From Proteromonas lacertae (taxonomy: Eukaryota), in assembly GCA_002245135.1 (NCBI GenBank), contig NGBS01000302.1, positions 62,001 to 126,000 of the forward strand: a stretch of 64,000 bases of DNA, read 5' to 3'. The first letter of the stretch is position 1. Each line of letters starts with the position of its first letter. Shown here in pieces: positions 1-49,564 of the stretch. The notes beneath the pieces are model-generated. The model was given only the letters and a program-made list of their open reading frames with translations, made no database searches and was not told the DNA's origin. A program made the translations under genes and the position numbers.

Positions 1-233
1 ATCAAACAACAAATCTATACACCAAAATATTCTTAATTATACTATATTAATACCAATAGTAATAAATTGTCCAATATTCCTGGGATAGTGAATGTAACTA
101 GCATTAATTTCATTCATATACATGAGTTAAATATTAAAGAAATAAGCCTCAGCAAAGATATTCTTATTGATTAAAAGAAAATAACCATCTGCTGAAAATA
201 GAACATTTTTCAATTTCTTCAAATAGTTTGCAT
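1..233 (-). CDS. 5' end of a spliced gene running off the window (MQTIEEIEKCSIFSRWLFSF...; weak resemblance to ABCC-transporter N-termini)
   Basis: Hand translation needs two single-base corrections, an AT-AC intron (126-161) and a GT-AG intron; product call rests only on the SIFSRWLFSF motif. Confidence 0.4.
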
Positions 234-431
234 TTTTTTATGAATTGAAATAGAGTTTTATTCTACAAAACATTCAACAATAACTACATTCATTACAACA
301 CAGATGAAAATCATTTTGTTTTTACTGTTTTCAAATATAATGAGTTAATATTTTCAACTATTTATCATTTTTATAATATTCTTATGTCGATTTGATCAAG
401 AATAATCAAGAAATGATTTTTGAAGAAAAAA

Positions 432-440
432 GGCGGGAAA
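432..440 (-). promoter_or_regulatory. Candidate E2F-type site (TTTCCCGCC) in the bidirectional promoter upstream of RPA2
   Basis: GGCGGGAAA matches TTTSSCGC on the minus strand; GC-rich word in an AT-rich spacer, 50 bp before the ATG. Confidence 0.35.
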
Positions 441-490
441 GCTTGCTCATTCGAGCATGCAATTATCATTTTGATTCATTTCTTAATAAT

Positions 491-3400
491 ATGCCAAAGA
501 CTCACAAATCTGATAGTACTGATAAAAGATTATCACCAGCAGGCTACTATCAAGTATGAAAGTAATGCTCTATCTAATAATAGAAATTAGCAACTAATCC
601 AAGCGCTTCTCCTGGTCCATTACCATCCGATGAATGCACTCGTTTGACAGTATTTATACATTTATTACACTTTATAGGAACTGAATCAACACAATATAGA
701 TTCATTCAACTATATGTTGGATACAGGTCTTCAATTAGCTATAGATGACTTGATGCCTGAACGAGTATAACATTATTTATTATATCTTTATTGATTTATA
801 GCTAAAAGTTGGAGATGATGTGATTCAATTCAGAGTATCTGGTTATAACCTCGATTTTCCTAAAATATCAGATGGTGTATCAGTATCCAATACTAAAAAC
901 TCTGTTCCAGTTTCAGATGACAGATTATTGCCACACATTTGCAGAGAAGCTGGTTTAACTTATGGAGGCAATTTCACATTAATTTTTGATGTTGATATTA
1001 ATGGTGAAACACACAAAATAGAGAAAAGTATGGGAATATTACCAATTATGGTGAAATCCAACAAGTGTCACTTGACTGGTATGAATCCACAACAATTAGT
1101 AGATGCACATGAAGAAAGTAATGAATTTGGAGGATATTTCATATGTAATGGAATTGAAAGATTAATCAGAATGTTACAAGTATATACTTATTATTATTAT
1201 TATTATTATGAATAATAGATTCCTCGTCGAAATTTCCCAATGGCATTTTCCGCGTTCCTCCTACACCAATCGTGGTCCAATGTATACTGATAAAGGTGTT
1301 AGTATAAGATGTGTAAAACACGATCAGAGTGCCAGTTTCGTGACTCTCCATTATATCAGTGATGGTAGAGTAACCTTAAGATTCTCCATTAGAAAACAAG
1401 AATACTTAGTGCCAGTGATCTATATATTAAAAGCCTTCAAATCCTGTACAGATAGAGAGATATATAATAAAATAATGAGAGGAGATAGTAGTAACATGTT
1501 CTTAGCTGATCGATTATCTATTATATTCAGAGAGAGTAGAAATAGTAAAATATTCACACAAGATGATGCTTTAACTTATATTGGATATAGGTTTAGATTA
1601 GTATTAGATCCTGGTGATGATATATCAGATAAAGAAATAGGACAATTGATATTAGATCGATATATATTTATACATTTAAATAACAATAATAATTCTAAGT
1701 TTGAGTTATTATTATTAATGTTACATAAGTTATATAGTTATGTGAATAATGAGATAGCTGCTGATAATCAAGATTCATTACAAAACCAAGAAATACTACT
1801 CTCAGGACATTTACTCACTGCATTTTTGAAAGATCGATTTGAATTCTTAATGTTGAATATAAAGAGACAATTGTTGAAGGAATATAATAGCAGTTTAAAT
1901 CAATACAAATATTAGTGGTAATAGAAGAGCAAGCAGTAAACCAAAACAACCATTTTCACTCAACATCAATGTATTTAGAAATGCATTGAGAGTACAAGGT
2001 GAGATTGGTAAAAGAGTGTATTTGATGTTAGCAACTGGTAATGTGAATACTTTGTCAGGATTAGGATTGATGCAAATATCTGGATTTACTATTGTGGCTG
2101 AGAAAATTAACTTTTGGAGATATTTATCTCATTTTAGATCTGTTCATAGGTATATAATATATATAAATATTAATTATTGTTAATTAATACATTATCTATT
2201 ATTATCTATACTAATTCTACTTGTATTTATAATACACCATAATGTTATATATAATGATAATTAAAAAGGGTATCTTATTTCTTTCTATAAATTTCTTACT
2301 AAGAGGTTATCATATATTATTATTATTTATATAGAGGATCATTCTTCTTGGAAATGAAAACAACATCAGTGAGAAAAGCTATTACCAGAATCATTTGGAT
2401 TTCTATGTCCTGTATGTTTATATATATTATATTATTATTATGAAATGTAATGAATGTTAAATATGTAATGATGGACTGAATTTTATATATAATGAAGTCA
2501 ATTTTATATCATGAACATTTGTTATTATTATTATATAATGTGATGATTATTAAATTATGATCGATAGGACTGAAAACAATAATGTTGTATAACCTATACG
2601 TTGAACATTATTATATATATATTATTATTATTATTATTATATAAATATTGTTTTATATATTATTTACATAGGTTCATACACCTGATGGTCCACCTTGTGG
2701 TTTATTAAATCATTTAGCTTCATTATGTCAAATAACTACACGATATATAGAACCAACTAATATTACATCAACACTTATATCACTTGGTATGACTCCCATC
2801 AGTAACAGTGTTACTACAGTAATGAATACAGTGCCTGTATTATTAAATGGTGAAGTTATAGGATATATTAATCCAAGTATATATTATATATATATATATA
2901 TATTAATTATTAATATTTTGATTATGATGATGATAAATTGGTTTTTCCCATACCATTCGCAGTACTTAGCGACTTAATACTATCTTTATGCCAAAAGATA
3001 AGTATAAATGGGCTTTATTTCCTTGGATGTCTGAATAATCAATATTATTTCTCTATTATATATAAATGTGATGATAACTTGGTTTTCCCATACCATTCGC
3101 AGTACTTAGCGACTTAATTTTAACTTTTGCCAAAGGTTAATAATAAATGGGCGATATTTCCTTGGATGTCTGATTTATATATATAATTCATAATTATCTA
3201 TTTATTATTATATTTATGCATATATATTAATCTTTAATAGGTTCATTATTAATAATATCTAAACAATTACGAAGTCTCAAAGTCCAACATAAGAACAATT
3301 TACCTTCTATATTCGAAATATGTGCAATTCCTAAATATAAAGAAGGTGGTGGTCCATATCCTGGTTTATACATTTCTACAGAAGAAGCAAGACCAATCAG

Positions 3401-5221
3401 ACCAGTCAATAACCTCAGTAATCAATGCATAGAATATATATCACCAATGGAACAAGTGTTTATGGATATTGCAATTACTGATTGTGATATAAGAACAGGT
3501 GTAACTACTCATAAAGAAGTAAGTCCTACTTCAATGCTGTCAGTATTAGCATCATTAACACCATTCTCTGATTTCAATCAATCTCCTCGTAATATGTATC
3601 AATGTCAAATGGGTAAGCAGACTATGGGTGATGGAGCAATGTCTTTAGCTTATAGAACTGATGGTAAATTATATAGATTAATTACACCACAAGTATGTAT
3701 TATATATATATTAACTATTAATATTTTGATTATGATGATGATAAATTGGTTTTTCCCATACCATTCGCAGTACTTAGCGACTTAATACTATCTTTATGCC
3801 AAAAGATAAGTATAAATGGGCTTTATTTCCTTGGATGTCTGAATAATCAATATTATTTCTCTATTACATTAATATTATATAAATAGGTGCCAATTACACA
3901 GAATCAAAATGAAAGTGTTTATCGTTTTGATGATTTTCCCAATGGTACTAATGCTGTAGTTGCTGTTATATCTTATACAGGTTATGATATGGAAGATGGT
4001 ATGATTATTAATAAAGATTCTTATGATCGTGGATTTGCACATGGTTGTCTATATAAAACAGAGTTAATAGATCTAAGTGAAGATAGATCTAAAAAGAATC
4101 ATGTTTACTTTAGAAAACCACCAATTACATTATTCTCTAAAAGAGATCAAATGGATAAGAGTATATTGAGAATTGATAATGATGGTTTACCTCCAGTTGG
4201 TATTAAAGTACAAGAAGGTGATGCTTTATATATTACCTTTGATGAATTAGTCAATAAACCGATTATACATAGACATAAGAGTGTAGAACCAGCATATGTT
4301 GATCAAGTTAGAATTATTGGATTTACAAGCAGATCAAGTGATAATAGTAAAAATACAAATTCAGATTCTTCTAATAACACATCAAATGATATTAAATATA
4401 TCACTAAAGTGAGTATCAAGCTAAGATATACTCGTAATCCAGTAGTTGGTGATAAATTCAGTAGTAGACATGGTCAAAAAGGTACATTATCATTATTATG
4501 GCCTCAAAGAGATATGCCATTTACTGAATCTGGTATTACTCCTGATTGTATTATCAATCCACATGCTTTCCCATCTAGAATGACTATTGGTATGTTAATA
4601 GAGAGTTTAGCTGGTAAAAGTGGTGCTTTACATGGTATATATGAAGATTCAACACCATTTCAATTCAATGAGAAAAATACAGCGTTAAAGTACTTTGGTG
4701 AACAATTGAAATCAGCTGGATATAACTATTATGGTAATGAAACAATGTATAGTGGAATATTAGGATGTGAATTAAAAGCAGATATATACATAGGTGTTGT
4801 ATATTATCAAAGATTACGTCATATGGTGAGTGATAAGAGTCAAGTCAGAGCAACAGGACCAATCAATCAATTAACAAGACAGCCAGTTAAAGGAAGAAAG
4901 AAACATGGTGGTATAAGATTCGGTGAGATGGAAAGAGATAGTTTAATAAGTCATGGAGCTGCATTTATATTGAGAGATCGATTAATGAATTGCAGTGATA
5001 GACATATTGCTTATGTATGCAAGAAATGTGGATCTTTATTATCAACATTTGCAGTTAAACCTGATACTAAATATTATGAATCTAATAAAAAGAAGTTTAT
5101 ATGTAGATATTGCAATAGTACGAGTAATTGTACTAAAGTTGTATTGCCTTTTGTATTCAGATATCTTGTAAATGAATTATGTGGAATGAATATTAAAGTT
5201 CGTTTAGATTTAACAAATTAA
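491..5221 (+). CDS. RPA2: DNA-directed RNA polymerase I second-largest subunit (multi-exon)
   Basis: Motifs [80 protein letters not shown]; Pol I-type wording; about 7 introns; apparent +1 indels near 1900 and 2375. Confidence 0.97.
2443..2520 (+). ncRNA. Candidate intronic box C/D snoRNA A
   Basis: AAATGT/ACATTT terminal stem, degenerate box C GTAATGA (2447), D' CTGA (2476), box D-like ATGA (2511), inside the 260-nt intron 2412-2671. Confidence 0.5.
2537..2609 (+). ncRNA. Candidate intronic box C/D snoRNA B
   Basis: AATGT/ACATT terminal stem, box C GTGATGA (2540), guide GATCGATAGG before D' CTGA (2570), box D-like TTGA (2601). Confidence 0.6.
2918..3042 (+). ncRNA. U14: U14 box C/D snoRNA, copy 1
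   Basis: Box C ATGATGA (2927), domain A CATTCGCAGT (2954-2963), domain B TTCCTTGGATGT (3019-3030) followed by box D CTGA, TTGATTAT/ATAATCAA terminal stem. Confidence 0.93.
3059..3181 (+). ncRNA. U14: U14 box C/D snoRNA, copy 2 (diverged)
   Basis: Box C GTGATGA (3068), identical domains A and B, box D CTGA (3170), TATATAAA/TTTATATA terminal stem. Confidence 0.93.
3726..3850 (+). ncRNA. U14: U14 box C/D snoRNA, copy 3 (same sequence as copy 1)
   Basis: Same boxes and domains as copy 1, in intron 3693-3886. Confidence 0.93.
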
Positions 5222-5268
5222 TTAATTATTAATAATAATAACATATTATTTATTTTGTTTTTAATTGA

Positions 5269-6625
5269 CTATGTTTGGATTGTAACGGTTATTTTTTCAT
5301 CTAATGTTATAGTCTTCATTCTTAATTGGGTAAATACTCTCCATTTTGATTGGAATCTTTACTTTTTCAGATTTTATCTTCTTCTCAGTTGGTGTCATAT
5401 TCACTTTAACAGCTATTTGATTAGTTAAAGTAAAAATATCACTTTTCACAGCTTTTCCAGATGTTTGTGGTATAAATAAATTCTCACTCGGTATTTCAAT
5501 ATTCCATCCATCTACATCACTAATTAAACTCAATTTTATATTCAAATCACAAAGCAAATTCTCAGGGATAAAAAATGTTATTAAGAATATATAATTATTA
5601 TTACATTATAAACGAAAAAGATATATTTTCTATTGTCAATATAAACATATTTGTAGATTTCATATATTCAGAATATAATCTAACGATTGGTAAATATTTA
5701 TATCCACTTTCTAATGTCTTATATCTATTACTCGATTGCTCATTCTTAACCAAATATTCTTTTTTACCTCTTTCATCATTACATTTTCTACAATATCTAT
5801 CTATTACAGGTGTTCTAAGTAATGGGATTGGTAATAAACTTCTATTTAATAAAATGAACAATATTATAATAAATATAGTAATATACGACATATCATGATT
5901 ATGAATTAATGGATTTGAATTAATTTGCTCTTTTGTTGAGAATATATTTGGACCTGGAACAGAAGGAATTGATATATTTGGAATATAATCCTATTAATTT
6001 GTTTATTATAATATATATATCAATATATACTCTATCAACTTTTATTTCTTTCTTTTCTTTTTCTTCTATTTTTTTCATTAAATCTTCCATTGACCAGGAT
6101 GATTTAAATTCAGGTATTTTTATTACTTCTTTACTATATAATTGCTTTTCTTTGCCTTTATTTTGTTCTTTATATTTTTCAATTAAAGTCTCTTTTGCAT
6201 CATTAAATTTTGTTGTATAAGTATTATTATTTAATTTTTCGGATATATTTTGTTCTAAGTCATTACGACTATTACCGCTTACTATATTTCGAGATTTCCA
6301 AGTACAATGTTCACAATGATATTCGTACTTTTCTACATCCTCCTCCTTAAATACTGCTATACGAAGTATTGTATTACATAACGGACAACTATAACAATTA
6401 TTACACCTAAATATCAAAATATGTCACAAACACATATACAGTTTATTTCCAACAGGTATTTCTGTTGATTGACATTTACTACACTTTAATATTGAGATTT
6501 CACAACAACTACATTTTGGATTTTTACATAATATCTGTCTACAATATCCACAAAAATAGATGTCGCTAATTGAAGCAAAATGGACCATTCGAACATTCGT
6601 ATACAATTGTAGGATCCTTCTGCAT
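5269..6625 (-). CDS. DCTN4: Dynactin subunit 4 (p62)
   Basis: IYFCGYCRQILC, RCNNCYSCPLC, YHCEHCTW zinc-knuckle pattern, PLLRT...RYCRKC; multi-exon; 3' end approximate. Confidence 0.8.
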
Positions 6626-6961: not shown

Positions 6962-9900
6962 ATGGGGGGAAAATATGATAATAGGAGCAGTATTGTATGA
7001 ATAATTGAATAAATATTATTAGAAATTTTATAAATCTGTGTTTGGTTTTAAAGTAAGAATTTTTAACGTTATGATGTAGATTTTTAGTAATATAAACTCG
7101 ACCAAATATTTTGAAACGTATCATGTAAAGGATAAGAATAATTTGGAGAAAATAGTGAAGGTGTATGATAAACGAAATTATAATAATGAAATTCTATGTA
7201 ATTATGTATAATGAAATTATATTTCTATTTAAATTAGATGAATAATATGATTTTAATCACTTCCTTTCTGATTCCCTCTGTTGATGTGAGTTTAGAAATA
7301 GTGCATAACGATTTAATGATATGTTCAACATATTATAATAATGGATCAATAGAATTGTTAAATGAATTTAATGAAAAAGTAATGGAAAATATATTTAATG
7401 AAATAAGTTATGAATTGTGTTTATTAGATGAGTTGAATTTAATTCATGGAAGAATCAAACCTTCTAATATATTAATAAGAGATGATGGTAAATATATACT
7501 AAGTAATTACTGTGAAAATGACTTAAATGGATTAGAAAACAATAATTATAAAGAATTACTCTTCATTTCTCCAGAAGTATTGAAAAACAAAGAGATAAGT
7601 AATAAAAGTGATGTATTCAGTTTAGGTGTATTATTACATTATATGTTATTTAATAAAAATGTATTCTTATCTTGTTATTATAACCCCAATCTATCAAAAT
7701 ATATCAAAATTCTTATAAAATGTTTAAATCTAAATCCTGAGAAAAGACCAACAATAAGAGAAATTCACAATAGTCTTTCAAAAGAAAATAAAGAAAAATT
7801 GAATGAAGATGATATAATAGAAGTATTATTGAAAGATATAGATTTTCTATACGAATTAATATCGAATGATTATGAAATAAAAGATTCAATAATGTATGAT
7901 AAAATAATCACTGATAAAAGTATATATATATGTTATATTATTATTTCAATTATATTATAAATGAATAGAAAACTTAATAAAACTGATAAATCATTATAAC
8001 AGTTACGATAAATTAATCTACATTTACTATTTAGTGAATATAAGTTGGTATAATGAAGATAATAAACAGTTGATTGATTTATTAATAAATAGAGGAAATA
8101 TTTTTACACATTTTTTATATATTCATTCAGAAAAACCATTTCAATTGAATTTATCCAACAATAGTGATGATAACGATGAGGAAGAAGAGGAAGAGGAAGA
8201 GGAAGAGGAGGAAGAAGAAGAAGAAGAAAATGATTTTTTTGTTGTAGCAATTAATTTCATTCATCTTACTGAGTTACATTCATTGAATTTATATAATAAT
8301 CCGAAACTAACCAAAACAATTCAATCCTTTATCATATTTCCATATTTAGAAAGATTGAACATTTCTAAAAGTATAAATCTTCATAACAAAATGAAAGAAA
8401 TATCAATAGAATTATCCAATTTAGCTCATTTGAAGTCTCTAAAATTATCTTTCACTCATCTAAAAGATAATGATATGTTAATTTTTTTTCACTACTGTAA
8501 TACATTTAAAAAACTTTCGCAGTTATATTTATCCTGTATAATATGATATTTATGAATATATTGTAGATAATAACCTTGGTGATAAATCTGTTTTATATCT
8601 TCATCGATATATGAATAAACTTCCCAAATTAGAAAAACTGAATTTATGTGGAATAAATTTGAATATTGAAAGTGTAAAATTGTTGTTATATCATTACAAA
8701 TACAATTCAATTCCATTATATTTTTCATTCAAAAGTATTTTATTATTATTATTATTATTAGTCGATGAAAAATCATTCCGAAATGTTGATTGAGAATGAA
8801 TATAAAACAAATAATAGTTATTTTTATAAACAAATAGGTAAAAAAGAAAGTATAATAATCAATTGATATATATTATTTATAGAATGCTATAATAAATTAT
8901 TTAGTATGTATAAATCTAATCCAAATGATTATTGTCTTGGATTATTATTTGGTTTTGCTATGGCTAATCCACAATATAAACCTTCAATTCTTGAAATGAC
9001 TAAATCAAATTCAACAAAAAAGAAATTATTCTCCGTAATAAGTAATGATTATTATTTGAATCTTAGTAGTATATAAACGCTACTTTTATAATCTAATAGA
9101 TAATAGTCTAGATGAAAATGATATAGAAACCTTATGTGATTATTTAGATTATTGTCCAACACTGTCAATATTAGTAATTGCAAATAGTAGTCTTACTGAT
9201 AAATCCTTAATAAGACTGAGTAATGCAACAACAAAATTTACTAAGCTTCGACAATTATTTATTTCAGGTATTTATATAACATTTAAATATATAAATAGAT
9301 AATTCATTTACTTCAGAAGGAATAAAAGAATTATCAAAATCATTAAAGTATTTGACAGATGTGAGGATGTTAGGGTTCTTTAATAATATTGAAATTGGTG
9401 ATGAAGGTGTTGTATCAATTGTTAATTCTTTCAAATATATAAGAAAACTTGAGGCAATCAGTTTTCAAAGTATATAATATACTTAATTTATTCATATTGC
9501 AATAGATTGTGGATGTGAATCATTAGGACTAGAATCAATAAGTTACAATTTACATTATGTTACTAATTTGACTGTTTTTGCTTTGAAGAGTATATATTTT
9601 TGGTGTAAAATGTATAGATTTAAATAATTGTGAATCTTCATTTCAAAGATTAATGAAACAAGTAAAGCAATTGAGTTTGCTGAAGCGGTTATATCTAACT
9701 AGTATTAATCAATAGTATTTTTATTCTTAGCTTGTGAGATAAATGATAATGCATTTATCAATATTGTGTAGTAGTTTGAGTAAATTAACAAGTCTTGAAG
9801 AATTGAAATTAGGAGGTAAAATCTATTCTTTATGAATGATTTTTAAATAGATAATAGAATCAGTAGTATTGGATTAGAATATTTCATACATAATCTTCAT

Positions 9901-12900
9901 CATGTTACAAAACTCAAAACAATTTTTTTGTGGAAAAATTATATTGATGATGTTGGATTAATATCACTTACACATTCTCTTCATCTATTACCATTTCTAG
10001 AAACACTAAATTTAAATGGTATTATTAGATATTTTTTTAACAGTATAGGAAATAAAATAAGTGAAAGAGGATGTGAAATATTATTAAATAGAATGGAATG
10101 AATTACCAAACAGAATCGATGTTGATTTAAAAGGCAATATAATAGATACAATAGATAAACCAGATCTTCTAAACAAATTAAAACAAATAGATACTAGCTG
10201 TATAATAATTTCTAATTGTTTAATAATTGAAAATAGTTTTATGTTTAAGTGAAGTATATGATTTATTAAAGACCAAAAATTGTTATTCATATAAAATGTT
10301 ATTACAGTATGTTGTTGATAGTAATGGTATATATATAATTTTATTTATTATTGAAATAGGTTTATTAGAACATATAGTAGAATCATTTAATTCAACCCGA
10401 AATGATATTCTATTTACTTTTTTATGTAATTTAACTATGTGTTATAATGGATTTAAGAATAGATTGATGAAAATGATTGATTTCGAGAATGATAATTTAA
10501 GATTGAACTATTTCAAATGTATAGGAGATGAATATGATTTTAAAGCGGATAGTATGTGTTGAGATATATTAATTGAAATAGATAAAAGAATTACAAAAGA
10601 AGATTCAGAATATATAGGGAATAATATTGATTGTTTGAAAGAATTGGCAGCAGTTAATTTTAAATGTATAAACTACTGCTTTTATCTTAGCTTGTGCATT
10701 AAATGATGGTAAAATGAAAAGAATATTAAATGCATTATGTCGATCACATCAATTAGAATATCTTTGTTTAGGAGAAAACAATCTAAGTTCATCAATTTTA
10801 CAACCAATATCTAGAGTGATAATTAATAATAAACTCTTAAAATGTCTCATACTCTTTGGTATTTAATTCTAAATATTATTCTTTCACTAGATAACAGTTT
10901 ATATGATATAGGAATAGTAGAATTAAGTAAGAGATTAAGATATATTCCTAAATTAGAAATCATATCTTTGTCAAGTATAATTATTCTTTCTATATCCTAA
11001 TAGATAATAGATTTACTACAAAAGGAGCAATAGAACTATCATCCAATTTATCATATCTGAAAAAAACTAAGAAAAATAAACATTGGAATAAATGATATTG
11101 GTAATGAAGGAATAAAAAGAATAAGTAAAGAATTTAAGAATCTATCAAATTTAATAACAATTGGTTTTAGTGAAACAAATATAAATGATATTGGATTAAC
11201 ATATATATCCAATAATCTTTCTCACTTAAAATATTTGGAGGAGATAGATTTATCATTTAATGATTTCACAGAAATAGGGATAAAAGAATTTTCTAAATCG
11301 GTCAGAAAATGTGAAAATGTCGAAGAAATAGATTTTTCTGGTTGTGGATTAGATTCTATATCATTTTGTGTTTTACAAAAATTGTTAGTTTGCCTAGACT
11401 AACCTCAGAAACTTTCAATTTAAATTGTATGTTTTTTCATTATTTGTTGAATAGATAATTATATAGGAAATGATGAATTAAATGATTTGACTATAACTGA
11501 TGATATGTCTCGCTCATCATCAATATGCGAAATTAGATTTAAAAGTATTTTCTATTATTTTTTTTCATAATTTATTATAGATAATAATATGAATGACAAA
11601 TGTTTAATCAATTTATGTAAATTCTTAACGCAAGTATCAAATCTCAGATTATTGACTATTTCAAGAAATAAAATATCGAATGATGGAATAAAAGAATTAT
11701 CAAAACAGTTTTCTGTTCTATCGAAACTAGAAGAATTATATTTTGATGTAAATGAAATAACAGATGATGGTTTAAAATACATATCAGATTCAATCAGCAA
11801 TCTTTCGAATTTAAGATTTCTTTCATTGTCATGCAATAAATTCAATTTGAATGGATTTAAATACATGTCAGAATCGTTGCATTTCTTAGCTGATTTGAAG
11901 ATGTTATATTTAGATGGAACAAATTTAACAGATGAATCAATGAGAATAATTTGTGATAATTCCAAATATTTACCTCATTTAGAAAGATTAAATGTTGGAG
12001 ATAATAATTTAACTTCAATAAGTTGTAAATATATATCAGATTCATTTGTTTATATTCGAAGATTAAAATCACTTTACATTAATGGTATTTTTATTTTTCT
12101 TATCATTTTTATTGTTATTTTAGAAAATTCAATAAATGATCTGGGAATGAAATACCTATTTAAGAATATCAGTTATATAATAGATTTAGAATCATTAGAT
12201 GTGGGAAGTAAATATTTTCATTTATATATCAATAGGATGTAATTTAACAGATTTATCAATTGAGATAATATGTAATTCAATAAATTCATTGATTAATCTA
12301 AATACACTCTATCTGTCTAGTATTTATTTTACTATTTATATTATGCTATAGATAATGAATTAACAGATAATTGTATAACAGATTTATGTAAATTCTTTAA
12401 TCCATTAAATGGATTGAAATCCTTACATTTGAATAGTATGTCAATTTTTATTACTATTATCATTAGATAATAAGCTAACATGTAAAGGAATAAAAGAATT
12501 ATTGAAATGTGTTAAAAAATGTTCAGAGAGTTATGATATATTTATAACAGGAAATATAATGGAAAATGTAAATGAAGGATTATTAGAAGATATAGAATTA
12601 TGCAATCCAAATTATAGATGTATAGAAAGAATAAAAGAAAAGATAAATAACAAAGAATACAGTTATGAAAATGAAGATGATTATATTGATATTATTAAAA
12701 GTATCAGTTTATTAGATGATATTTGTAGAGAATACAATTATGATAAAAGAAAAGAAAATGAATATTTACTTTTAAATATCTGCCTATTTTATTCGAAACA
12801 AACTAGTTATATTCATTGAAAACACAATATTTGATTTACATACAATATATTATACTCTTTTATCCTCAATAAAAGAAGATCATTTCAATTGTTTTAAAGA

Positions 12901-13210: not shown

Positions 13211-15857
13211 TTATATCTCTAATGGTTGATATTGTTGGATTTGTTCAGCTGTCATAGTTTTGGCTTTATATCGACTTGGTGGAATTGGTTTTATCATTGG
13301 ACGATCTAAAAATTCAATTGGAATTCGTTGGAATCGAGAAGCTTCAGGATTAAATTCGGGAGTTTGAATAAATGTTAAAAATAAGTGTTTTATTCGAGTT
13401 CTTAAACCCTCCAAATTTCGACCTAATCTTCCACGATTTAACATATCAGCTTCACGATCGATTAATTCCACCAATTCTCGAGTTAATTTTGTATCAAATT
13501 CTTTTATTGTCCATTTTATATGCAATAATATATCTAATCTTTCATCTATTGATTTCTTATTATCGCATAATCCAACATATAATTCTTTCAATTCACTAGC
13601 TCGTTTTGTATAAGGAGTTTCAATTGTGGCGATTTCATTATCTCCCATTGCCCATTTCTTATCATTTGACATTAAATCTAACATTCGATTAGTATTTTCT
13701 TCTTTGTTTTCTTTTGCAGCTTGACATTTTAATCGATCAATATTTTGTAATAATTGAGTTTCTTTGTATAATACTTGAGCTAATGCTTCTAATCTTTCTT
13801 TATCACCAAGACTACTCTCTTTTATACGCTTATTCTCATAATATCGCCAGTTTTCTAATTCATTATATAATATTTCAAAATCCTCAGTTGTTCGTGGATG
13901 CATTCTTCTCTCAATTTCACGATGTCTTTTCTGTTCAGCTCCATCATCTTCTTTTTGAATATTTTCATCTCGTTCTTTATTTATTCGATCTCTCTCAGCT
14001 CTTAATTCTTTTGCTCTTCGACAAGCTATGAATTTTCTCCAATATCTTTGAATTACAATTGTTTTCTCAAATTTTAATTCTTCTAATTGTTGTGCAGTAA
14101 AATAAGGACCAGGAACTATGATTTTATCTTCATCGATTATCAATATATAAATCTTTACGTTCCATCTGTGTTCCATGTTCTCGTTTTGATTGAATACTTC
14201 GAGTTTTAAATTCATATGTTTGAGTTTCTCGATGGCTTTTAGATGGTTGATTTGCCCAATCAGTTTTCATTCGAGGAGTATTGGTGCAAGCATCATGATA
14301 TTCTAAACCACTTTTCTTCTTTCGAAATCCTCCAATAAATGGCTTTCTAATTGTACAAGGAGTTACTTCAACATCAATCGCTTTAACAATTTCACCACAA
14401 TCTTTGATTTGAACTTTTAATGTATAATTTCCATTACTTAGTATTATTGGTGATGGAGGTTTTCGATCACCTTTCACTTCGATTATATATTGTCTTCTTA
14501 ATTCCATTCCTAAATCTATTGGACTTAGATCATCAGTTACTGTTATAGCTATTTAAATATATAAATATATATATATAATTAATAATGTATATAATTATAC
14601 AATTATAAACTAATTTTGAACCTTCCAACATCTTAAATTCTTCATCTACTTTTCTATGGATTATTGAAAATTTTATATTGATTGGAAATAGATAAGTTGC
14701 TACTATTTGACTTTTCATTTTTGGATCATGAATAAATGATAAACTAACACATTCTTGTTCATCACTATTGTTACTTATATTATATTCATCTTCTTCATAA
14801 TTTGAATCAATATAATCATTGTTATTCATATCATAGGGTTGAGTTTGTTCTTGAAATGTTTCTTCATTTGCTTCTTCTTCATTATCATCTTCAGAAGGTT
14901 GTTGTAAATAGATTAATTCTTCAGCTTCTTTTGTTGGAGCTACTGTATCATCATATTCATGCTCCTTCAGGTTGCTGTTCTTCTTCTTCTTGTTGTTGAA
15001 TATTTGTGGGTAAATCAACTGCTACTGTTGTTACTAAATCACCTTCTTTAGATTCCATTGGAGCAGCTGATGGAACTTCAACTAAGATTTGGTCTTCTTT
15101 AGATTCTTGTACTTCAGATGGAGGTTCTTCTACTGGCATTTCTTCTTTAGATTCTTCTTTACTTTCTTCCACTTGTTGTTGTGTTTCTTCAGCTGCTGGT
15201 TGTTCTTCTACTGGCTCTTCCTTTGTTTCTTCCTCTGGTGGTTGTTCTGTAATTACTTCTTCTTTAGATTCTTCAGCTTCTACTGCTGGAGTTTCTTCGG
15301 TTTCTGGTTGTTCTGTTGGTTGTTCTTCCTTTGACTCTTCAGTTACACCTTCCTTTGCTGGTAGTGGCTCTTCTTTAGTTTTTTCTGGATTTTCTATTGG
15401 TTCTTCCTTTGATTCTTCTATTGGAGCTTCTTCAGAAGGTGTTTCTTCTGATGGTGGCTGTTCTATTGGTTGTTCTTCTGATTGCTCATTTTCTTTACTC
15501 TCCGATTCTACAGCTGCTTCCTCTTTCGATTCTTCTATATTTTGGTTTTCACCTTCTTCTGTTTTTGGCTGTACTTCTTCTCTTTCATTATCTTCATTAT
15601 CACCTTCGGCTTCTTCAGTCTTAGCCCTCCTCTGCATCTTTTGTTTCATCTCTTTCCTTATATTCATTTATATTATTATTTTCTATATTTTCATTTTCAA
15701 TTGTGTTGTTTTCTGATTCCTTCACTTCTTCAGCTTCTTTTGATTCAGAATTATCTTCAGTTGGTTGTATATCTACATTTTCTGATTTACTTTCTTCTTC
15801 TGTATTGGGCTCTATATTTTCTGGATTATCTAAATTCTCTGTTTCCTCAGAATTCAT
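13211..15857 (-). CDS. IQUB: IQ and ubiquitin-like domain protein (ciliary radial-spoke IQUB/FAP253 family) with long acidic N-terminus
   Basis: KPFIGGFRKKKSGLEYHDA, RETQT, IQRYWR IQ motif, PRTTEDFEILYNELENWR, IDREADMLNRG, FIQTPEFNPEA; ORF pieces joined by indels and one intron. Confidence 0.9.
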
Positions 15858-18520: not shown

Positions 18521-19376
18521 ATGGACAAAATAAAGGCTAAGCGGAAATTAAGACAGGAAAAACAAAAAGAAAAAAAGTATATTCTGCATAATTGATTTGT
18601 TTAGAAAGAAATTAAAGAGTGAAGGCAGATATGAACCAAAGAACAATATCAAAAGAAGTTATATACATCCCAATAAAACGTATTTTCATATATTTTATAT
18701 ATCTAGCTGAAATAAAAGAGGAAAAAGTAGAAGACAATAAAAATGAAAATACTAAAAGTGAATCTGTTGATATAATCCTTCCACATGTATTAAAAAGTCT
18801 TTTATCTACAATTTTATTTTTATATTTACTAGAATGAATTCTACAGAGATATAGTCTTGAAATTAAGAGATGATAAAAATTCGAATGAAAAAGAATGATT
18901 TTGTAGTTTATTTTTATTCTTATGTAACAACACTAATATTAGATTATATAAATGAAAATAAAGTATTCCAACAGAATATGTATTTCTTATTATGTTTTTA
19001 TTCATTGAATAGAAAATGGAATGGTATAATGAAATAGAAAAATGGATTAGTCATATGAATAAATTAGTTGAATCAAAGCAATTTCCAGAAGAAAGATTAA
19101 AGAAATTGTATGTAATAATAACATATATGTTAGAAGGAAAGTATGTAAAAGCTGAACAGAAATATTTGGATTTAAATGTAGGAATAAGTTATGAAGGAAC
19201 TACTTCTGAGTCAATTATTATTAATGATAAGAGATCCGATGGATTGAAGTTGCTGCCTGCAGATGATATTCGTAATATGATGTTTGTATGATAGATTATT
19301 GTAATATACATTTTCATAGAGTATTAAAAGAATAATGACATTTTGGAAAGCAATAATATTTCCAGAATTTGGTTAA
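18521..19376 (+). CDS. Divergent Prp18-like second-step splicing factor
   Basis: LYVIITYMLEGKYVKAEQKYLDLNVG and DDIRNMMFSIKRIMTF resemble the Prp18 helical bundle. Confidence 0.6.
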
Positions 19377-19674
19377 TTTGCTTTAATATTTATTATAAAG
19401 TGTATAATTTTTGAAAATATTGTAATTGAGAGATTTTGTTGTTAAAAAATATATTTATTGTGTTCAATTGCATTAGTATTGTTGTTTAACCCGATATTGT
19501 GCTTATATTGATTTTATTTATAAAGATATATGGTTTTATTTAAATTTAATTTGATCAAACATACAGCTTGATCTTTTAGTTTTTTTCATTTCTTTTTTTG
19601 AAGCATGTATGTATCTATTTGCTTTATAAATTCAACCAACAATATATTTATATGTAATAGAAAGAATAAAGAAG

Positions 19675-20199: not shown

Positions 20200-20289
20200 A
20201 ATAATAATAATTATTATTATATATTGTTGTAAAGATCAATAAAATAAAAATAAAAATATCAATTTTTCAATAATATTATAATCTCTCTT

Positions 20290-30000: not shown

Positions 30001-33000
30001 AAGGTGTAATCGTCGCTGTTAATGGCGTTTTTGTACTTTTCATTTGTTCATGCATATTTCTAATCACCATTCTTGAGTTTAACGTTGATTTCTTATTATT
30101 GACAGGTGTTTCTGGTGATAATAAATCATCTACATTTGTTGATTTAACTGATGCTCTATCATCAACACTTCTACTTTCAATTAATTTGGTATTAATATTT
30201 GGTAATACTTCATCTTCAGTATGATATAAACTATCAATATCCATATGTTTATCACTTAATAACAGTGCTAAGATTTGTGCATGACCATTTGCACAGGCAT
30301 GATGTATTGCTGTAAAACCTCTTTTATCTTCCACTTCAATTTTTGCTCCATTTCTTAACAACAATTCACAGATTTTGAAATTTCCTAAGAATGAAGCTAA
30401 CATCAATGGAGTTGTTCCATTATTATCTGTTAATTCAATTTGTGCTTTGTTCTTTATCAACAATTCACAGATTGCTATAAAGCCTCTTTTTATAGAAATA
30501 TATAACGGAAATTGTCCAAAACTATCTTGTGTATCAATGTTGGCTATAATACTATCTTCAGATAATATCAATTTAGGAATAATATCAATTTGATCATTTC
30601 TACAAGCTCTTAACAAATACAAATTAAACAATTCAATCTTATTTCTTTCAGTTTGATCAACATTCTCTTTCAACGTTTCAATATCATTTACATCAACGTA
30701 ATTATCATTTAAAGCTTCTACTCCTTCTTTTTTCTTTATTGTATATCCTAATTTCAAAATGCCTCTAATCATTTCCAATGCATTTACTTGACACATTTCT
30801 TTTTCAGATTGTGTTAAATATTCGTATGGTACTAATTCTGAACTGACTTTCTCATTATTAGCAGCTGCTGGATCTGGTGAATACTTCCATCCTGCTTTTA
30901 TCTTCTCTTGTGACCATTCTTCATGTGTATTCTTAGATAATAAGTGAACCAACGGGATTTGTTCCATTGAAACTTCTATATTTGATGTATCTAAAGGTTC
31001 TGGAACATATCTTCTTGTTCTATATAACCAAATAATAAATAAAATAACTATACGCTTTCTTTATATTATGTTCATTCATATAATTCTTAGCAATATTATC
31101 AGAAACACATTCTATATCATATCCTAAATATTCAATCAATTTCACACTATGTTTAGCAGCATCAATATCCCATTTCTGATCTTCAGCTGACAAATCACAC
31201 CAAGCCTTTATCATTGGATGTATTTTCTTGTTATTATCTCTCTTTGGACCATATTTCCATCCATTTTCTATCTTTTCAGCACACCATACTTCATGACTAT
31301 TTTGTGATAAACATTGTATTAATGTATTTAAATATATATTATCTGGAATCGAAGATGTATCAATTGGATTTGGAACATATTTATAACCTTCAGATTCTCT
31401 TTTATCTACACCAAGCAAAGCTTGACATGTATTCTTTTGACAAGCACAATAAGTGTCTTGAACTAATCCAACATAAGAAGTTTTATGATTACCATGACAT
31501 CTTGTTTTACAGATTAAACAGATATTTGTATCACACTCATCACAGTGATATATATGCTGAGTTATTGGATTAGTAAATGTAGCAAATGAGAAATGTACAA
31601 CTGTGTGTGTCTAAATAAAACAATAGTAATATTTATTAAATATAATAATAATAATAATATATACATTTCATTCTTTTTGTTAATTTCAACAACAAATCAT
31701 CAATCACAATCTTATTTTCATCAAACCTCAGCAAGCCTTCTACTACATCCACATCACCACTTAATAGTGTATAATTCAATATTTTATTAACAGGAACACC
31801 AGTACATCTAGTAACATGTGAACCACCTAATATCAAGGCAGAAATACAATCGAAATTATCTCTCAAAATCTATTAAGAATAAAATAAAATAAAAAAACAT
31901 AATATATACAGCATAATCTAATTCACTATATCCAGTCTCTTCATTAATTCTATTACATAGCAAAGGCTCTTGCCAAATATCATAAGTGGTATCTTGTAAA
32001 CAATAAATAGAATCACATCGATCATTCCATGTGATAATATCTAAAAATGAATATCCTTGTTTCAAGATCTTATTAATTGGCATTGATTGTAAAACTTCAA
32101 AATTTGTAGAACCATTGACTTCAGATAATAATCCAGTTTTACCTAACAAAAACATCGGACTCCATCCTAATTTATCTTCAGCATTCATTAATTCTATTTT
32201 ACCTTCTAAACTACTCACTTTATTAAATAACATCCTCATTAATTCCAAAGAAACATTCTCATGATTGTCACTAGTATTTGTACATTTTAAACACATAAAC
32301 AAAGGTGTAGTTTGATAAAATGATTCAACTAAAGGATCTGCACCTTTCTCTAATAGCAATTCAACCACTTCCATATTACCTAACTCACAACTAATCATTA
32401 AAGGAGTATAGCCATCTACTAAAGATGAAATATTTACATCAATATTACCTATTATCAATAATTGTTTTATTACATTAATATCATTCATTCTACAAGCAAT
32501 ATGTAGTGGTGTTTCTCCATTACGATCTACTCCATTTGGTTCAATATCACATTCTATTAAATACTTCAATACGAAATCTCTTTTCGCTTTTATAGCACAA
32601 TGATAAGGTGTTTCATTAAGAGGAGGAACATGTCCACTTAGATATTGACATTGATTTAGTAATTTAGTGACAATTGCATCAGATTCATTATAAATGGCAT
32701 GGCACAAATCCAATGTTTCAGGTGCTATTAAATATAAAATAAGAAAAATATAAATATATACGCAATTCTTTAAAGCAAACTATATAACTCAAAATACTCT
32801 GATCATTTAAAGTTCCTTCACTTCCTCCTAACACAATTTGATCACCAGATCTTACAACATCACTCTTTTCATACACATTAAAACATATATTTGTAGTATC
32901 AGTATAAACAGCGTAGGAAGTACGAGTAAATTTATTACTATTTAACCATTTCACTTCGAAATTAGTAGCAGGCCAAAGGATATACAATCTACACCTAATT

Positions 33001-34019
33001 CTTATTGTTAATGACATAAAATCTGAAGACGTGTTCGTTCTATCAACATGATGACCTTTTATATAAGGACAGCCTCTTAATTCATCACTTATTCGTGTTA
33101 TTTTCTGTTTTCTATCTGTCCAAGGCTTTTCACCAACATCTAATGGTTCATTATTGATTTCATATTGTCCACTTCCTTTACAAGATATTTCACAGATTGA
33201 ATCTTCTATTACTAATGAAGAATTCATTTCTTTTTCATATATTTGAAGTAATTCTAAACCTGTTGATAAAACTGTCCTTACTTTTTCATATTCTAATTTT
33301 TTATAAACTTCTTTCATATCCTCTTGATTAAATCCTTTACATGCATCTGTTATACAAAATATCTTTGCTGATGGTGCATATATGCCACAATCTAATATAT
33401 TAAACTGAATACCATATTCAACAGCTAATCCACAGAAATACACTTCTTTTATTGATTTTTGTGTGAATAATTCCGATAGAAGACCTTGTTCATTCTTTTT
33501 ATATTCTCTAAAACCAGAATCTATTATTCATATGTTAATTGATATATACAATTATCGATTGTTGGATCAGTTCCACATCTAACTATTATATCAGAACCTC
33601 TTACAAGAAGATCGGGATGTAACTCAGCTCCATGTGTTCCTGCTACACAAAAATCAGTCCAGAGAAGCTGAGAACCAATTATAGGAACATGACTAATTTT
33701 ACCTTTAGCATAACCCTAAAATATTATGTTATACAATTTTATTAATAAATATACTGGATTGTTTGAACAAAAAGAACTATTATTAATAATAAAGAGAAAA
33801 ATATACCAATGATTCAGAGGATGCCACAGCTTGTAATATTACTGTGTAATCAAAATCTTTACGCCTTAATTTATTAATCACAGGGATAATATCAACAGCA
33901 TTTTCAATAGGAACGGCTCCGCCTTCAAAGTAATCGTTCTAATGTAAAGATATGTATTAGTTATGTTATACTTGAACATCTACAATAACCAAAGCCCTTA
34001 CTATATGTTCTTTTGACAT
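27067..34019 (-). CDS. Multidomain PKD/TRP-type cation channel: pseudo-nicotinamidase, beta-rich domain, ankyrins, UBR-box-like Zn finger, 2 RyR repeats, ankyrins, 6-TM pore, coiled coil
   Basis: Exons splice through GT-AG introns with two single-base corrections (about 33830 and 31590); ALVIVDVQNDY; GETPLHIAC; YVPNPIDTS..NSHEVW..GWKYG; RFIKFLRLIPGWGP and LVNLFIAIV S4-S6 signature. Confidence 0.85.
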
Positions 34020-38452: not shown

Positions 38453-38460
38453 TCTTAACA

Positions 38461-39892: not shown

Positions 39893-40022
39893 AATTGTAT
39901 TTATAATATTATATATATATATTTTCTTCATTTTGTCATTTTTTGTAATTCAACAAAATAACCCATTAATAATAGTTAAAATAATAATAATAATAATAAA
40001 CATAGATATATATTATATTATA

Positions 40023-42839: not shown

Positions 42840-42963
42840 TTTATTTTACTTACAAACTCATACAAGAGAAGAAAATTAATTTTGAAAGACAGATATACGT
42901 TGTACAAGCTTTTGGTTTGATTCTCATTTTATTTATTTGCTTTTTTCTCATTATATACAGAAT

Positions 42964-44457: not shown

Positions 44458-44537
44458 TCGTTTAGTATGTTGATTTTATAATATACTGCATTATTTTCAC
44501 AATCGAAATATAAAAAATAAAACATTAATTGAAAGGA

Positions 44538-46765
44538 TTAATAAGATTTAGCAACTATTTGTTCTTTCATCTTCTTCTGCTGATCTCTATATATACATAC
44601 ATGTAAATAAATAATAGAATATTATACATATCAATATTCTGGAATTTCCAATTCAACATTGTCATAGGTAATATATTATCTTCTATTCTTTCCTTTCTAT
44701 CTACACGATTATATAAATAATTTTGATAATTAGCTAATTTTTCTAAGTCTTCTTCTATCTTTGATAATCTCACTTTATATCTGTTCAAAGAATCTCCTCC
44801 TAAATTTCTCAATTGTATTGAATATTCATTTAACGAGTTATTCTTCTTTCCCCAATAAGGTTGTAACTATTGTAAAGATATTAATAAATAAAAATATAAA
44901 ATATATACATTATTCATTTTATCATTTAATTCACCAATAATCTGTGTTATTATTGCTTTCTCATTCTTCAATTCATTAATCCTCAGATTTATTTCACTTA
45001 ATTTCTCTTTACTTATTATATTATCTAACAATAAATCAGTTACTTGAGAATTTAATCTTGAAGTATCATCACCATTCATCTTCGTTTGTGTTCCAATATT
45101 GTGTAAAAGTGGTTTAACTATTATACTTTCATCTCTACTCTTTGGCTTTCTCTATAATAACAAAATAAAAAAAATTATTATTATTATTAGTATATATACA
45201 GATGCAATTGCTAGTTTATTTCTATATTGTTCATTTTCTCTCTTCAATTTATTAAGCACAAAAATATATTGTTCATATGGTAATCTTCGTTCTATATCAT
45301 TTACTTCACTTTGTACATATAACAGATCTTGAACTTGCAATGGAGGTAATAATTGTCTTTGTAATGTTTGTTTTTCTTCGGATAATTTATTAATTTTGTT
45401 TTCATATTCCAATTTCATTTTACTTATATTGTTATTGATGTTATTGATATTTGATTCATTTTGTAATTGAATTTCTTTTATATTATTCTTATTCTTAGCA
45501 TCTAATTGTTGGATATAGAGTTTATATTTTGATTTTGTTTCTTCTATTACCTTTGAATAATCCATTTTCATTTTCTCTATTGTATTGTTATGGTCAATAT
45601 TTATATTACTAATTTGATTTTTGAAATTCTCTTGTAATTGGTTTATTGTACCATTTAACTCCATTACTTTCTTATTTAATTCAATTGAATTAGATTTGTG
45701 TTTATTTTTATTCACTATTTCTGTATTATATTGATTTGTAAGACTTGTTAATTCTGATTTTTGTTGCTTTGTTAGATTTGTTAATTGTTGAATATTCTCT
45801 TCATTTTCATTCAACATTTCTTTCATTCTAAATATAAATATAAATTACAATAAATATACTTTTCTATTGTTGAATTTAACTCTGTTATCTTACTATCTTT
45901 ATTCTCATTTTCAATTTCTAAATTATTCACATTTCTTGTTAATTCTGTTATTGCATTTTTATTATCTTTTATTGTATTTTCATAATCCAATATCTTTGTA
46001 TGATACTGCTCATTCTGTTCATAGGCTTGAGTAAGCTTGGTCTTATAATCAGAAATCATTTTGGTATATGTTTTACTCTTCTCCTCTATTTCTGCTTTAT
46101 ATGTATTTTCTAACTCTACTAATGTGTTTTTATTATTGCCAGACTATTTGAATACATTCATTATTAATATTATACTAAAGATTCTATTTTGGTTTGATAT
46201 GACTTCTTTAAATCTGCAATTGTCTTTTCTAAGTTTGTATTTTGTAATTTTAATTCGGTAATTTCATCAGATGAAGTTGTTTGAAGATCATTGAGAGATT
46301 TTTGAAGTGATTCTATTGTAGATTGATATTCTTTGATTTGTTGATTTGTCTATAAAACATATATAAATATTTTAAATATACTTCAGAGTTATAGCTCTCA
46401 TACTTCTGTTTATATAAAGTGATTTGATCTTTCAGATCTAAATTTTCTTACAAAATTAAAGAAAATAGAATTTTAAATGTCGAACTTAAAAGATATAGCT
46501 TGTAATTTCTGATTATCCATTGATAATTCATCATTTTCTTCTTCTCTTTCTTTTAAAACCACATTATAATTATAATCAAAATCTTCTTTAAGTCTATCAT
46601 AACGATTTTTCATATCTGTCAATGCTTGATTCTTTTTCTTTAGTTCATTGTCTAATTTAGCAATTGTCTGTTGATTTTTTTCAGTTATAGCTTTTTCATT
46701 CTTGTTGATAAATTCTATAATATCAATATTATTCCCATACCTATTAAAGATTCGTTTAAATTCAT
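44538..46765 (-). CDS. Long coiled-coil protein of unknown function
   Basis: Heptad-rich exons joined by GT-AG introns and one AT-AA intron (46448-46496). Confidence 0.65.
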
Positions 46766-46920
46766 CAAACAGATTTTTTGAAAATATGGTGTATCAAAAT
46801 ATTTTCAATAACCATTTCTTTTAAAAACCTTTTATATGGCTATATAATCATATAATCCCAATAAAAATCATTCTTATAGATATTCTTTTAAATTTTAAAA
46901 ACAGAAAAGTCACATAAAAC

Positions 46921-49564
46921 TCAAGGAAATCCAAAAAGCATCTTAAAAATCACTTCAGATTCACCAGTCAAAAACTTAGGAAATTGTACAGTCTCAGCCA
47001 ACAATGATTTCTTTGTATCAGGATTAACAATAATCAAAGGAGGGAACCATCTCTTATAAAAACTATGTAAAGTATAAAACACATTCACATCTTTATTCAT
47101 TTCTACTAATTCACAAACACTCTTGAAGAAATCAGCTCCATTACTTGGAATCAATAATCTATTCTTCTTACACTGTAATGCAATAGACATAGCTTCATTT
47201 ACTCGGTGTAATTTCAATAGAGATGATATTAATATTCTGTATTCTTTCAACAATTTGAATATACTAATACCTTCATCTTGTATTTGAGTATTATTATAAC
47301 TTATTAATAATTTAGCTAAGTTCGTGGTTGGCTTGAATAATGGCAATTGTAATAGAGTTATAAGTTCTTTTATATTGTTGGATTTATAGTATGAATCAAT
47401 GACAAGTTTGATTATTCCTTCTTCTTCATCAATTCCTAAGATTTGTAAACTTCTCAAATATTCAACATAAATGGATATTGTTAATTTTGAATATTTCACT
47501 TCATCAGGTATTTTGTTGAATACTTAAAAATAACATTAAAGAAAATAAATGAAAAATATATGTATAATAAAAATGATATTTCTTTCAATATTTCATTTTG
47601 ACATACAATAAACTTAGAATTATCTCCAAACACAGTTGTTAAAGTTCCATCTAAATATTTCTTCTCAAATTGATTCATAATATAATTATTATCTCTACAT
47701 GTCTGTAAATAGATTCTATTAATATAATGAAATTGAACAGATAAAAAAGAAATATTATTACTATGATTAGTTATTCTATCAATCAACAAATTGAATAATA
47801 TTTTCTTATTTTCTAAATTTTCTGGTCTTCTTCTTCTTAACAAATAACTCGTAATAACATTAGGAGCTGTAATATGTTGAGATACACCTTCAATATTAAT
47901 ATCTATTGAATAAATAAATCCATTCCCTTTGTCTAGAATATAAGAATTCCATAAATATAACCAATTTGGACTGTATATTGAATCTATTTTTGCTTCATCT
48001 TTACAATCAACAGACTAAATTAAATAATAAATAAAAATATATATTAAATACAATTAAAGGTGAACTAACAACATAATTATTTTCTTCATTCTTTACTACA
48101 CCTTTACTAAACTTAATAATCACTGGTCTTACTGCTTTTCTTATCAACATTAATGTAGTTTGAAATGTACAATTCAATGTACTTTGACCATTGATTGCGA
48201 TTATATAACATCCTGGTGTGATTTTTCCTGATTTCTGAGCTTGACTTGGTTCGCCATTAATACTGACAGTTCCTTTAACTAATGCTGAACAATCAAAGGA
48301 ATTGTGTTTTCTTCCATCAAAATTACCATTCATCAAACTATTCAATAATAATAATAATAACTTTATATACGCTTGATGAGTTGATTCTAAATCTAATCCT
48401 AATGGACCATCATTAAATACTTCCTCAAACTCTTGATATTCAGATTCACTATTCTTATCATTACTGTTATATGGAATAATTGTATTATCTATTAATAATG
48501 GCTCAGGTGGAATTAATGAAGAATTCTATTCAATAATAAATAAATAAATATATATATATATATATATATACAGTCTCATCATCAACTCTTAAATCATATA
48601 AATATGTTTGTTTACTGTCAGTATTGTGAATAACAATTATATTATCTACAATATTCAATTTGTATTGTCCTACTTCAGATCTATATATTTATAAATATAA
48701 TAATACAATTTATATCTTTTATATCTTAATTCTTCATCATTTCCTAATCTTGTCACTGTTAATTCAGCTTTATTTCCATTCAATTGAATACAATAGAAAT
48801 TATTATAAATCTGCTTAATAAATATCTCATACTCTTCAATTGGTCCATTCGTCATTATTGATTTGTATTTCTGTGGAATTAATTCATTGAAATAAAATTG
48901 ATATATTTCATTAGATGTACTGGAGGAGGATATTAATAAATATCTACTCTTTGAAGAAAACCAACATGAATGGACTTTTATTGCTAAAGATCTTTTCTTA
49001 TCACATTTGCAGTTAATATCATCAAACACATAGAATCTTAGTCCATTTTGCATTACTATGGTGAGGCTTTGTGATATTCTCATTCTATTGTCAGTATTCG
49101 TTACATTCATCCAGAAGAAACCATTCTCTACTATCTGATTGGTTGGATCTTTCTCACCAAGTGGATAAATACTATTATTCAATATAAAATTTATATATTA
49201 TACTGTGCTGTTGATAGATCTATTACATCTACATGGTTCGCTGATCTTTGTAAAGCAATATAATGTCTATCTAGCGACACATTTGCACTCAATACTTCTC
49301 CTGGATTAATAAAGTTAATTGGAGCAGATAAAGTTATTTTAGAAAGTCCACTTTCATTAGGTAATGTCAAAGCATATAATCTATAAATTGGAGTAATACA
49401 AAATAATATATACATATTACCTAATTTATTAATCAATATAAGTTGTTGGTTAGCCTCATCAATGTATATCTATTTGGAATAGTCTTAATAGGCAATACTC
49501 TAAAGTCTGAGAATGAAAATTTTATAGCTGACCTTTTCAACAAAGTATTCATTGAAGAACTCAT
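46921..49564 (-). CDS. RMC1/C18orf8 (Mic1)-like regulator of MON1-CCZ1 with an inserted PDZ domain
   Basis: SLDRHYIALQRS, GFFW, IVDNIIVIHN...LYD, YSPNW, YLLRRR, YVEYLRSL; PDZ-like GPLGLDL...KITPGCYIIAING. Confidence 0.75.

Follow-up and report, generated by a model that had tools for sequence, protein, structure and literature searches.

Putative U12-type introns with AT donors and mixed 3' ends in a gene-dense window from a likely flagellated stramenopile

The window analysed here, that is, the whole 64-kilobase (64-kb) stretch of DNA, is eukaryotic and gene-dense (GC 26.4%) and contains five introns that lack a GT donor and carry signals resembling those of U12-type (minor) introns. The analysis is based on the window itself, several homologues and published papers. 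All five introns were located where a preliminary description of the window had placed them; each is read on the coding strand of its host gene, and the frame is open once each is removed. The gene model gives about 31-32 genes in the window, more than the roughly 27 counted earlier. The host genes and their introns (lengths in nucleotides, nt) are as follows:

1-240, minus strand: edge gene, cut by the window edge; intron 161-126 (minus strand), ATATCTTT..AC, 36 nt, putative U12-type AT-AC
5297-6588, minus strand: dynactin p62 (DCTN4)-like gene (PF05502, E 2e-4, below the curated cut-off); intron 5624-5567 (minus strand), ATATCTTT..TC, 58 nt, putative U12-type, phase 0
19675-20199, plus strand: Y14/RBM8A gene; intron 19887-19936 (plus strand), ATATCTTT..AG, 50 nt, assigned to the U12 type, AT-AG, phase 1
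about 44538-46765, minus strand: long coiled-coil gene; intron 46496-46448 (minus strand), ATATCTTT..AA, 49 nt, putative U12-type AT-AA, phase 0
46921-49552, minus strand: RMC1 gene; intron 47579-47524 (minus strand), ATATCATT..AA (a weak donor), 56 nt, putative U12-type AT-AA, phase 0

Four of the five donors are ATATCTTT, which falls inside the RTATCCTT rule with T for one C at +5 or +6, a replacement permitted by a rule that is given as a personal communication (PMC2846911); the RMC1 donor falls outside it. Near the 3' end, all five introns have a putative branch site like TCCTTAAC, each with one or two C-to-T changes: TCTTTAAY in four introns and TTCTTAAT in one. In coordinate order, the putative branch A lies 9, 15, 12, 9 and 13 nt from the 3' end, and 3/5 introns are in phase 0. 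C is present at +5 in 5/5 of these introns and in 3/131 major introns, while a U12-like branch motif is found in the last 25 nt of 4/131 major introns. As intron interiors are 7.7% C (and 50% T), the retention of one C of each signal in all five introns indicates selection. The ends AC, AG, AA and AA were confirmed; the fifth, at DCTN4, previously described as unclear, reads TC at 58 nt and has several options.

There are 60 ATATC[ACT]TT sites on both strands of the window, and TCTT(T)AAY follows 15-50 nt downstream at exactly these five. In 60 local dinucleotide shuffles, the same motif pair was found 1.1 times on average and four times at most (0/60 reach five); when the looser branch motif CTTT?AAY was used, 3/60 shuffles reached five. 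This test was not blind because the motifs, picked after the introns had been seen, were derived from the finding itself. A blind test was made with a self-trained gene model that had no knowledge of ATATC and could call introns with whatever termini in exchange for a fixed penalty. The motif-blind model placed a non-GT intron at 4/4 testable loci (donors 5625, 19883, 46496 and 47578), at most 4 nt from ATATC; for a random site, an ATATC[ACT]TT start within 9 nt has P 0.004. At a penalty of -16, three further any-end calls were made, all at single-base frame breaks. With a rising penalty the model switched to GT-AG introns at -18 for DCTN4 and Y14, at -24 for RMC1 and between -24 and -28 for the coiled-coil gene.

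Frame-keeping GT/GC-AG alternatives are present at four of the five loci (19875-19936, 46499-46406, 47602-47523 and 5604-5520). When the model was forced to use GT/GC-AG introns, it chose the donors GTCC, GCTA and GTCA at three loci, although 131/149 introns start GTA; this model broke Y14 and shortened RMC1. U12 introns of the GT-AG subtype were not found in the window: none of the seven GTATC[ACT]TT sites has the branch motif, and both of the modelled major introns that begin GTATC lack it. Other non-canonical model calls (11036, 15659, 40539, 18896 and others) were rejected as U12 candidates, as by eye they are single-base frame breaks or canonical introns.

The Y14 intron is the firmest of the five cases. 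It splits the Ser codon of GPARSVEG, and the final exon of the gene aligns with human RBM8A, starting at residue 70. The AT-AG model scores 345 against the homologue P0136 and 247 against the L001 protein, while the five GT/GC-AG alternatives score 308-319 and 216-220, respectively, and lose the GPARSVEG motif. Only removal of the AT-AG intron retains this conserved motif, so Y14 needs that splice for it. Y14 relatives in metagenomes were limited to one locus out of 110 pattern matches. The L001 Y14 gene is open only if TAA is read as glutamine (the ciliate code), and it carries a 94-nt GT-AG intron (L001:423-516) at the same Ser codon and in the same phase as the AT-AG intron of the window. 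The Y14 site is therefore an old intron position that here starts with AT. As the occasional conversion of major to minor introns is accepted (PMC11347168), the Y14 intron could represent such a conversion, a single ciliate giving no direction. Y14 also has splicing-related neighbours: at 18631-21974, a Prp18-like gene, Y14 and Prp19 adjoin, making three splicing-related genes.

The coiled-coil gene may be CCDC57-like; an Atlas search gave no usable name for it. The motif-blind model returns its intron, 46496-46448, exactly at penalties from -12 to -24, and within 45 nt only one GT/GC-AG intron could take its place, a GC-AG intron of 94 nt. For this gene and for RMC1, intron removal gives an open frame only. 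In RMC1, a PF07035 match starts with the very first residue encoded downstream of the AA end, in the next exon; the GT-AG alternative (47602-47523) has a GTCA donor and removes 8 residues. P0134, the only close relative of RMC1 (57%), has a sequence that starts past the junction.

The DCTN4 and edge-gene introns are the weakest of the five cases. In DCTN4, no AC, AG, AA or AT end 7-15 nt from the branch A keeps the frame. Its 3' end could be the TC at 58 nt or an AG at 64 nt; should the assembly carry one inserted base here, AC or AT at 57 nt would also be possible. Neither PDB nor Pfam returned anything relevant to the junction when searched with the last two exons. The edge-gene intron has the best signals of the five. 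It is 36 nt in length and in frame, its removal takes out just a stop codon, and it is in phase 1 if coding. No GT/GC-AG alternative within 45 nt keeps both frames at this locus, and the coding scores of the flanks are near zero or negative.

The quality of the assembly bears on these junctions. Across roughly 51 kb of modelled coding sequence, at least 11 frame breaks lie outside introns (RPA2, PARP, PDX2 and others):

about 1250, 1900, 11066, 15625, 35500, 35230, 39533, 41225, 40785, 55048 and 57695: frame breaks in conserved genes

When measured, 10/11 of these correspond to one extra base and 1/11 to two extra bases or one missing base, and they are likely to be insertion errors of an unpolished assembly. 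A twelfth candidate break (M28c) did not match its anchor and was excluded. A base insertion at the 3' end of the DCTN4 intron is therefore plausible, while the AA ends are unlikely to be errors because they would need a lost G. Stop-codon-triggered frameshifting at the breaks was considered and rejected, as conserved residues in RPA2, PDX2 and a leucine-rich repeat (LRR) kinase were seen by eye in the shifted frame before the stop.

Major introns were taken from the GT/GC-AG-limited model in genes of at least 240 coding bases (149 introns). Those that start GTA (131/149) all end AG. The median length is 34 nt (interquartile range 30-40), and 16% are 49 nt or longer. The five minor-like introns are longer (P 0.006), as had been claimed, although the U2-type length of roughly 30 nt given with that claim is somewhat low. 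These major introns are unusually strict, with the donor GTAT in 120/149 modelled introns and the acceptor TAG in 122/131 GTA introns, and in the model output, which is not hand-curated, phase 1 outnumbers phase 0 (63, 51, 21). Five minor-like introns among about 135-155 correspond to a local density of 3.2-3.7% (95% confidence interval 1.1-8.4%; one selected window). The excess described earlier stands against the rate of Blastocystis ST1 (346/35,412) at P 0.011-0.019, but the window had been flagged for that excess and two of the five introns are less secure, so the genome-wide share may be near 1%. Minor introns are likely to be common here, as they are in Blastocystis, with a share of one to a few percent.

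Blastocystis ST1 is reported to have 346 U12-type introns among 35,412 (about 1%), together with all four minor small nuclear RNAs (snRNAs) and seven proteins (PMC5608401). In the ST1 intron table (S11 Data, PMC5608401), 339 introns start ATATC, including 183 with ATATCCTT, 2 with ATATCTTT and 0 with ATATCATT. In a sample of 68 of these 339 (the first 38 and the last 30), counted by eye, there were 41 AC, 24 AG, 2 AT and 1 AA ends, 66 introns had C at +6, and minor introns were mostly 37-47 nt compared with 30 nt for major introns. Blastocystis minor introns are also described as 77% AT-AC and 49% phase 0, with a median of 39 nt and a fast turnover (Larue and Roy 2023, PMC10639083). The introns of the window are similar to those of ST1 in that they occur in what is likely a stramenopile, have AT donors and mixed AC/AG/AA/AT ends, are slightly longer than the short major introns and are often in phase 0. 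A stramenopile was therefore already known to have AT donors, mixed ends and minor introns longer than its major ones. What is new relative to Blastocystis is the absence of C at +6 and a greater use of AA ends. The base at +6 is T or A here, with C in 0/5 introns (P 1e-6), while ST1 keeps C, and AA accounts for 2/4 resolved ends as opposed to 1/68 (P 0.007). The branch sites also differ, with TCTTTAAY 9-15 nt from the end here and mostly CTTCAC/CTTAAC about 6-9 nt from the end in ST1, as does the minor share, which is about 3.5% in this selected window and about 1% in ST1. Flagellar genes are kept here and lost in Blastocystis (PMC10690189).

Physarum polycephalum is described as having a class of +6T introns; its branch A sits 9-12 nt before the 3' end, its non-canonical ends are most often AT-AG and AT-AA, and its U12 is co-changed (bioRxiv 10.1101/2020.10.12.336362). 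The introns of the window share with it the +6T donors, a TTT in the branch motif, the distance of the branch A and the AT-AG and AT-AA ends. Physarum itself is an amoebozoan with about 20,900 minor introns, which have a TTTGA branch motif and are mostly GT-AG, a subtype not found among the introns of the window. Similarity to animal and plant U12-type introns (RTATCCTT, TCCTTAAC) is seen in the ATATC core and in the pyrimidine-TAA branch motif near the 3' end, and AT-AC, AT-AA and AT-AG ends are all recorded there, although non-AC ends of AT introns make up about 1-3% of the conserved set and C is usual at +6. In our analysis, the system would operate as in Blastocystis, and its consensus, shifted towards AT, recalls that of Physarum. 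No paper on minor introns in Proteromonas, or in Opalinata beyond Blastocystis, was found in a search that did not cover the Proteromonas genome paper and its supplements, which may bear on the question. The main text of PMC10690189 contains neither "U12" nor "minor". Orthologues of the host genes in Blastocystis, sought by name with most supplements left out, gave no matches (0 also in the PMC4066798 supplements, one file left out).

During minor splicing, the donor base-pairs first with U11 and later with U6atac, and U12 pairs with the branch site (PMC2846911, PMC2396436). Opposite each C-to-T change in the introns of the window, the canonical snRNA box has a G, with which a G·U pair is possible. 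A canonical-like U12 box pairs with the five branch sites at -3.6 to -4.1 kcal/mol, compared with -6.8 for a perfect site, while a box with a G-to-A change is 0.3 kcal/mol better at four sites and 1.0 worse at DCTN4; these short-duplex energies are rough and use presumed snRNA box motifs. The energies of the donor box behave like those of the branch box, and RMC1 pairs with neither version. Because of G·U wobble, the small energy differences and the published rule for T at +5 or +6, altered snRNAs are possible yet not required. The altered U11/U6atac/U12 pairing that the preliminary description had invoked is thus not needed.

On balance, we consider it probable that these are genuine U12-type introns, removed by a Blastocystis-like minor spliceosome, with signals that have drifted to T in an AT-rich genome. 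U11 and U6atac would read the donor and U12 the branch motif, with G·U pairs where C has turned to T and with one C of each signal retained. The 3' site would be set mainly by its distance (about 9-13 nt) from the branch A, a choice that would allow AC, AG and AA all to be used. A distance rule of this kind had been proposed earlier; it fits 4/5 introns (9-13 nt) and agrees with Physarum, although it is inferred. At least three or four of the five introns are likely to be of U12 type, an identity well supported by sequence in general and by homology for Y14 only, and a variant of a known minor-intron system is likely rather than a new system. From these signals, an active minor spliceosome would be predicted in the host. 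An Rfam search of the 64-kb window found no minor snRNA at the gathering threshold or at E up to 1; a stretch of 64 kb is expected to lack snRNA genes.

Several observations weigh against this interpretation. The absence of C at +6 (0/5, compared with 66/68 in ST1) is large for drift alone. No intron position was shown to be ancestrally U12: RBM8A, DCTN4 and CCDC57 are absent from the human/mouse minor-intron tables (PMC6717393 supplements), and RMC1 is the sole one of the four named host genes to be listed there, with an intron that could not be matched to this site. At DCTN4, a TC end is nearly unprecedented (one case among conserved animal minor introns), and at penalties of -18 or stronger the model moves to a canonical GTA..TAG intron, 5604-5520. 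The edge-gene locus is unverified, as no homologue was found and neither short exon matched a family. In RMC1, the A at +6 breaks the published rule and pairs poorly with either snRNA box, and the anchor spacing of Drosophila Mic1 is 47 residues, compared with 46 for the GT-AG alternative and 54 for the U12 model, in a poorly conserved linker. Since this spacing slightly favours the GTCA alternative, the U12-type intron of RMC1 is only probable. A G directly follows both AA ends, while G follows only 21/135 modelled major introns. Finally, the stramenopile placement is based on one feature search and gene content rather than a tree.

The T at +6 in 4/5 introns, with C never seen there, is also what would be expected if the introns were of U12 type and U11/U6atac and U12 had acquired co-evolved G-to-A changes that restore A-U pairs, as happened in Physarum, perhaps together with an expansion specific to the lineage. 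The TCTTT present in 4/5 branch sites is the C-to-T change that Physarum U12 compensates, and the density of 3.2-3.7%, the phase 0 position of 3/5 introns and the GT-AG intron at the Y14 site in a ciliate would fit an expansion. However, the variant box gains so little at four sites while losing more at the fifth, AT pressure by itself favours T (as the composition of the interiors indicates), and an expansion would be read from five introns in a selected window. We therefore regard this explanation as possible but unlikely. Its boldest form is somewhat more doubtful still: a second, independently transformed minor spliceosome in a flagellated stramenopile, in which G-to-A changes in U11/U6atac/U12 match ATATCTTT and TCTTTAAY, distance determines the 3' ends and AA is used as often as AC, and minor introns have reached 3-4% by recent gain and major-to-minor conversion.

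A reading in which most of the five stretches are not introns in the form given here, with nearby GT/GC-AG sites used instead and the remainder due to indel errors of a draft assembly, is very unlikely. Frame-keeping alternatives at four loci (that of DCTN4 being a good canonical intron) and the frame breaks in the modelled coding sequence would fit this, but the alternatives drop conserved Y14 residues and have atypical donors, none exists at 126-161, and five copies of a two-part motif cannot arise from single-base insertions. Loss of the minor spliceosome, with the major spliceosome removing AT-starting U2-type introns, is at least as improbable. The lack of a minor snRNA in the window would fit such a loss but is expected in any case. 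The GTAT of the major donors is one base from ATAT and the Y14 site is U2-type in a ciliate, but C at +5 and a U12-like branch motif characterize all five introns and very few major ones, and the AA and AC ends depart from the major acceptor, which is strictly AG and mostly TAG.

The gene content of the window bears on the identity of the host. Genes named by Pfam include RPA2, dynactin p62 (weak), IQUB, Brix, Prp18, Y14, Prp19, PARP, GatB, RMC1, PPR, STIL, Derlin and an EGF protein, among others. Three of these are lineage markers:

13211-15857, minus strand: IQUB-like gene (PF25805, E 5e-50), marker of flagellated organisms
52940-55591, plus strand: STIL-like centriole gene (PF15253, E 1e-13), marker of flagellated organisms
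61405-62758, plus strand: Sig2-family EGF protein (score 0.95, 200/256 features, commonest in Oomycota), stramenopile marker

Sig2-type proteins go with stramenopile flagellar hairs. From its sequence, the host is likely to be a flagellated stramenopile, and gene content and intron style together suggest a flagellated relative of Blastocystis. Nearly all flagellar and centriolar genes are reported to be lost in Blastocystis, whose nearest sequenced flagellated relative is Proteromonas (PMC10690189). Prp19 homologues comprise one close cluster (P0001) at 79%, with 12 members, and otherwise matches of about 40%. With close relatives in public run assemblies (Prp19 79%, RMC1 57%), sister genomes for intron comparison exist.

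Other features of the window were also observed. Three U14 (SNORD14)-like C/D small nucleolar RNA copies (2922-3038, 3063-3177 and 3730-3846, plus strand) lie in introns of the gene for the second subunit of RNA polymerase I. Their E-values are 1e-7 to 9e-7, below the gathering score; two are in tandem in one intron, and the first and third are nearly identical. At 27067-34019 (minus strand), the model gives one protein of 2,160 residues with an isochorismatase-like start, ankyrin repeats, two RyR domains and a polycystin-type channel, which may be one unusual channel or two genes. Intron-rich LRR genes are found at 6975-12819 (plus strand), 22112-25585 (minus strand) and 56938-59047 (plus strand); two have an N-terminal kinase domain and one is modelled with 28 introns.

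Standard annotation will mis-splice these genes, because a model limited to GT/GC-AG introns broke Y14 and shortened RMC1. Larue and Roy (PMC10639083) raised the question of whether Blastocystis gained its many AT-type minor introns, which are rich in phase 0, only recently, and called for comparisons inside this clade. Minor introns of the same kind in a flagellated stramenopile would put a date on this style and offer a test of the idea of recent gain. If it is true that the snRNAs have changed together with the introns, this would be the second such case of co-evolution after Physarum.

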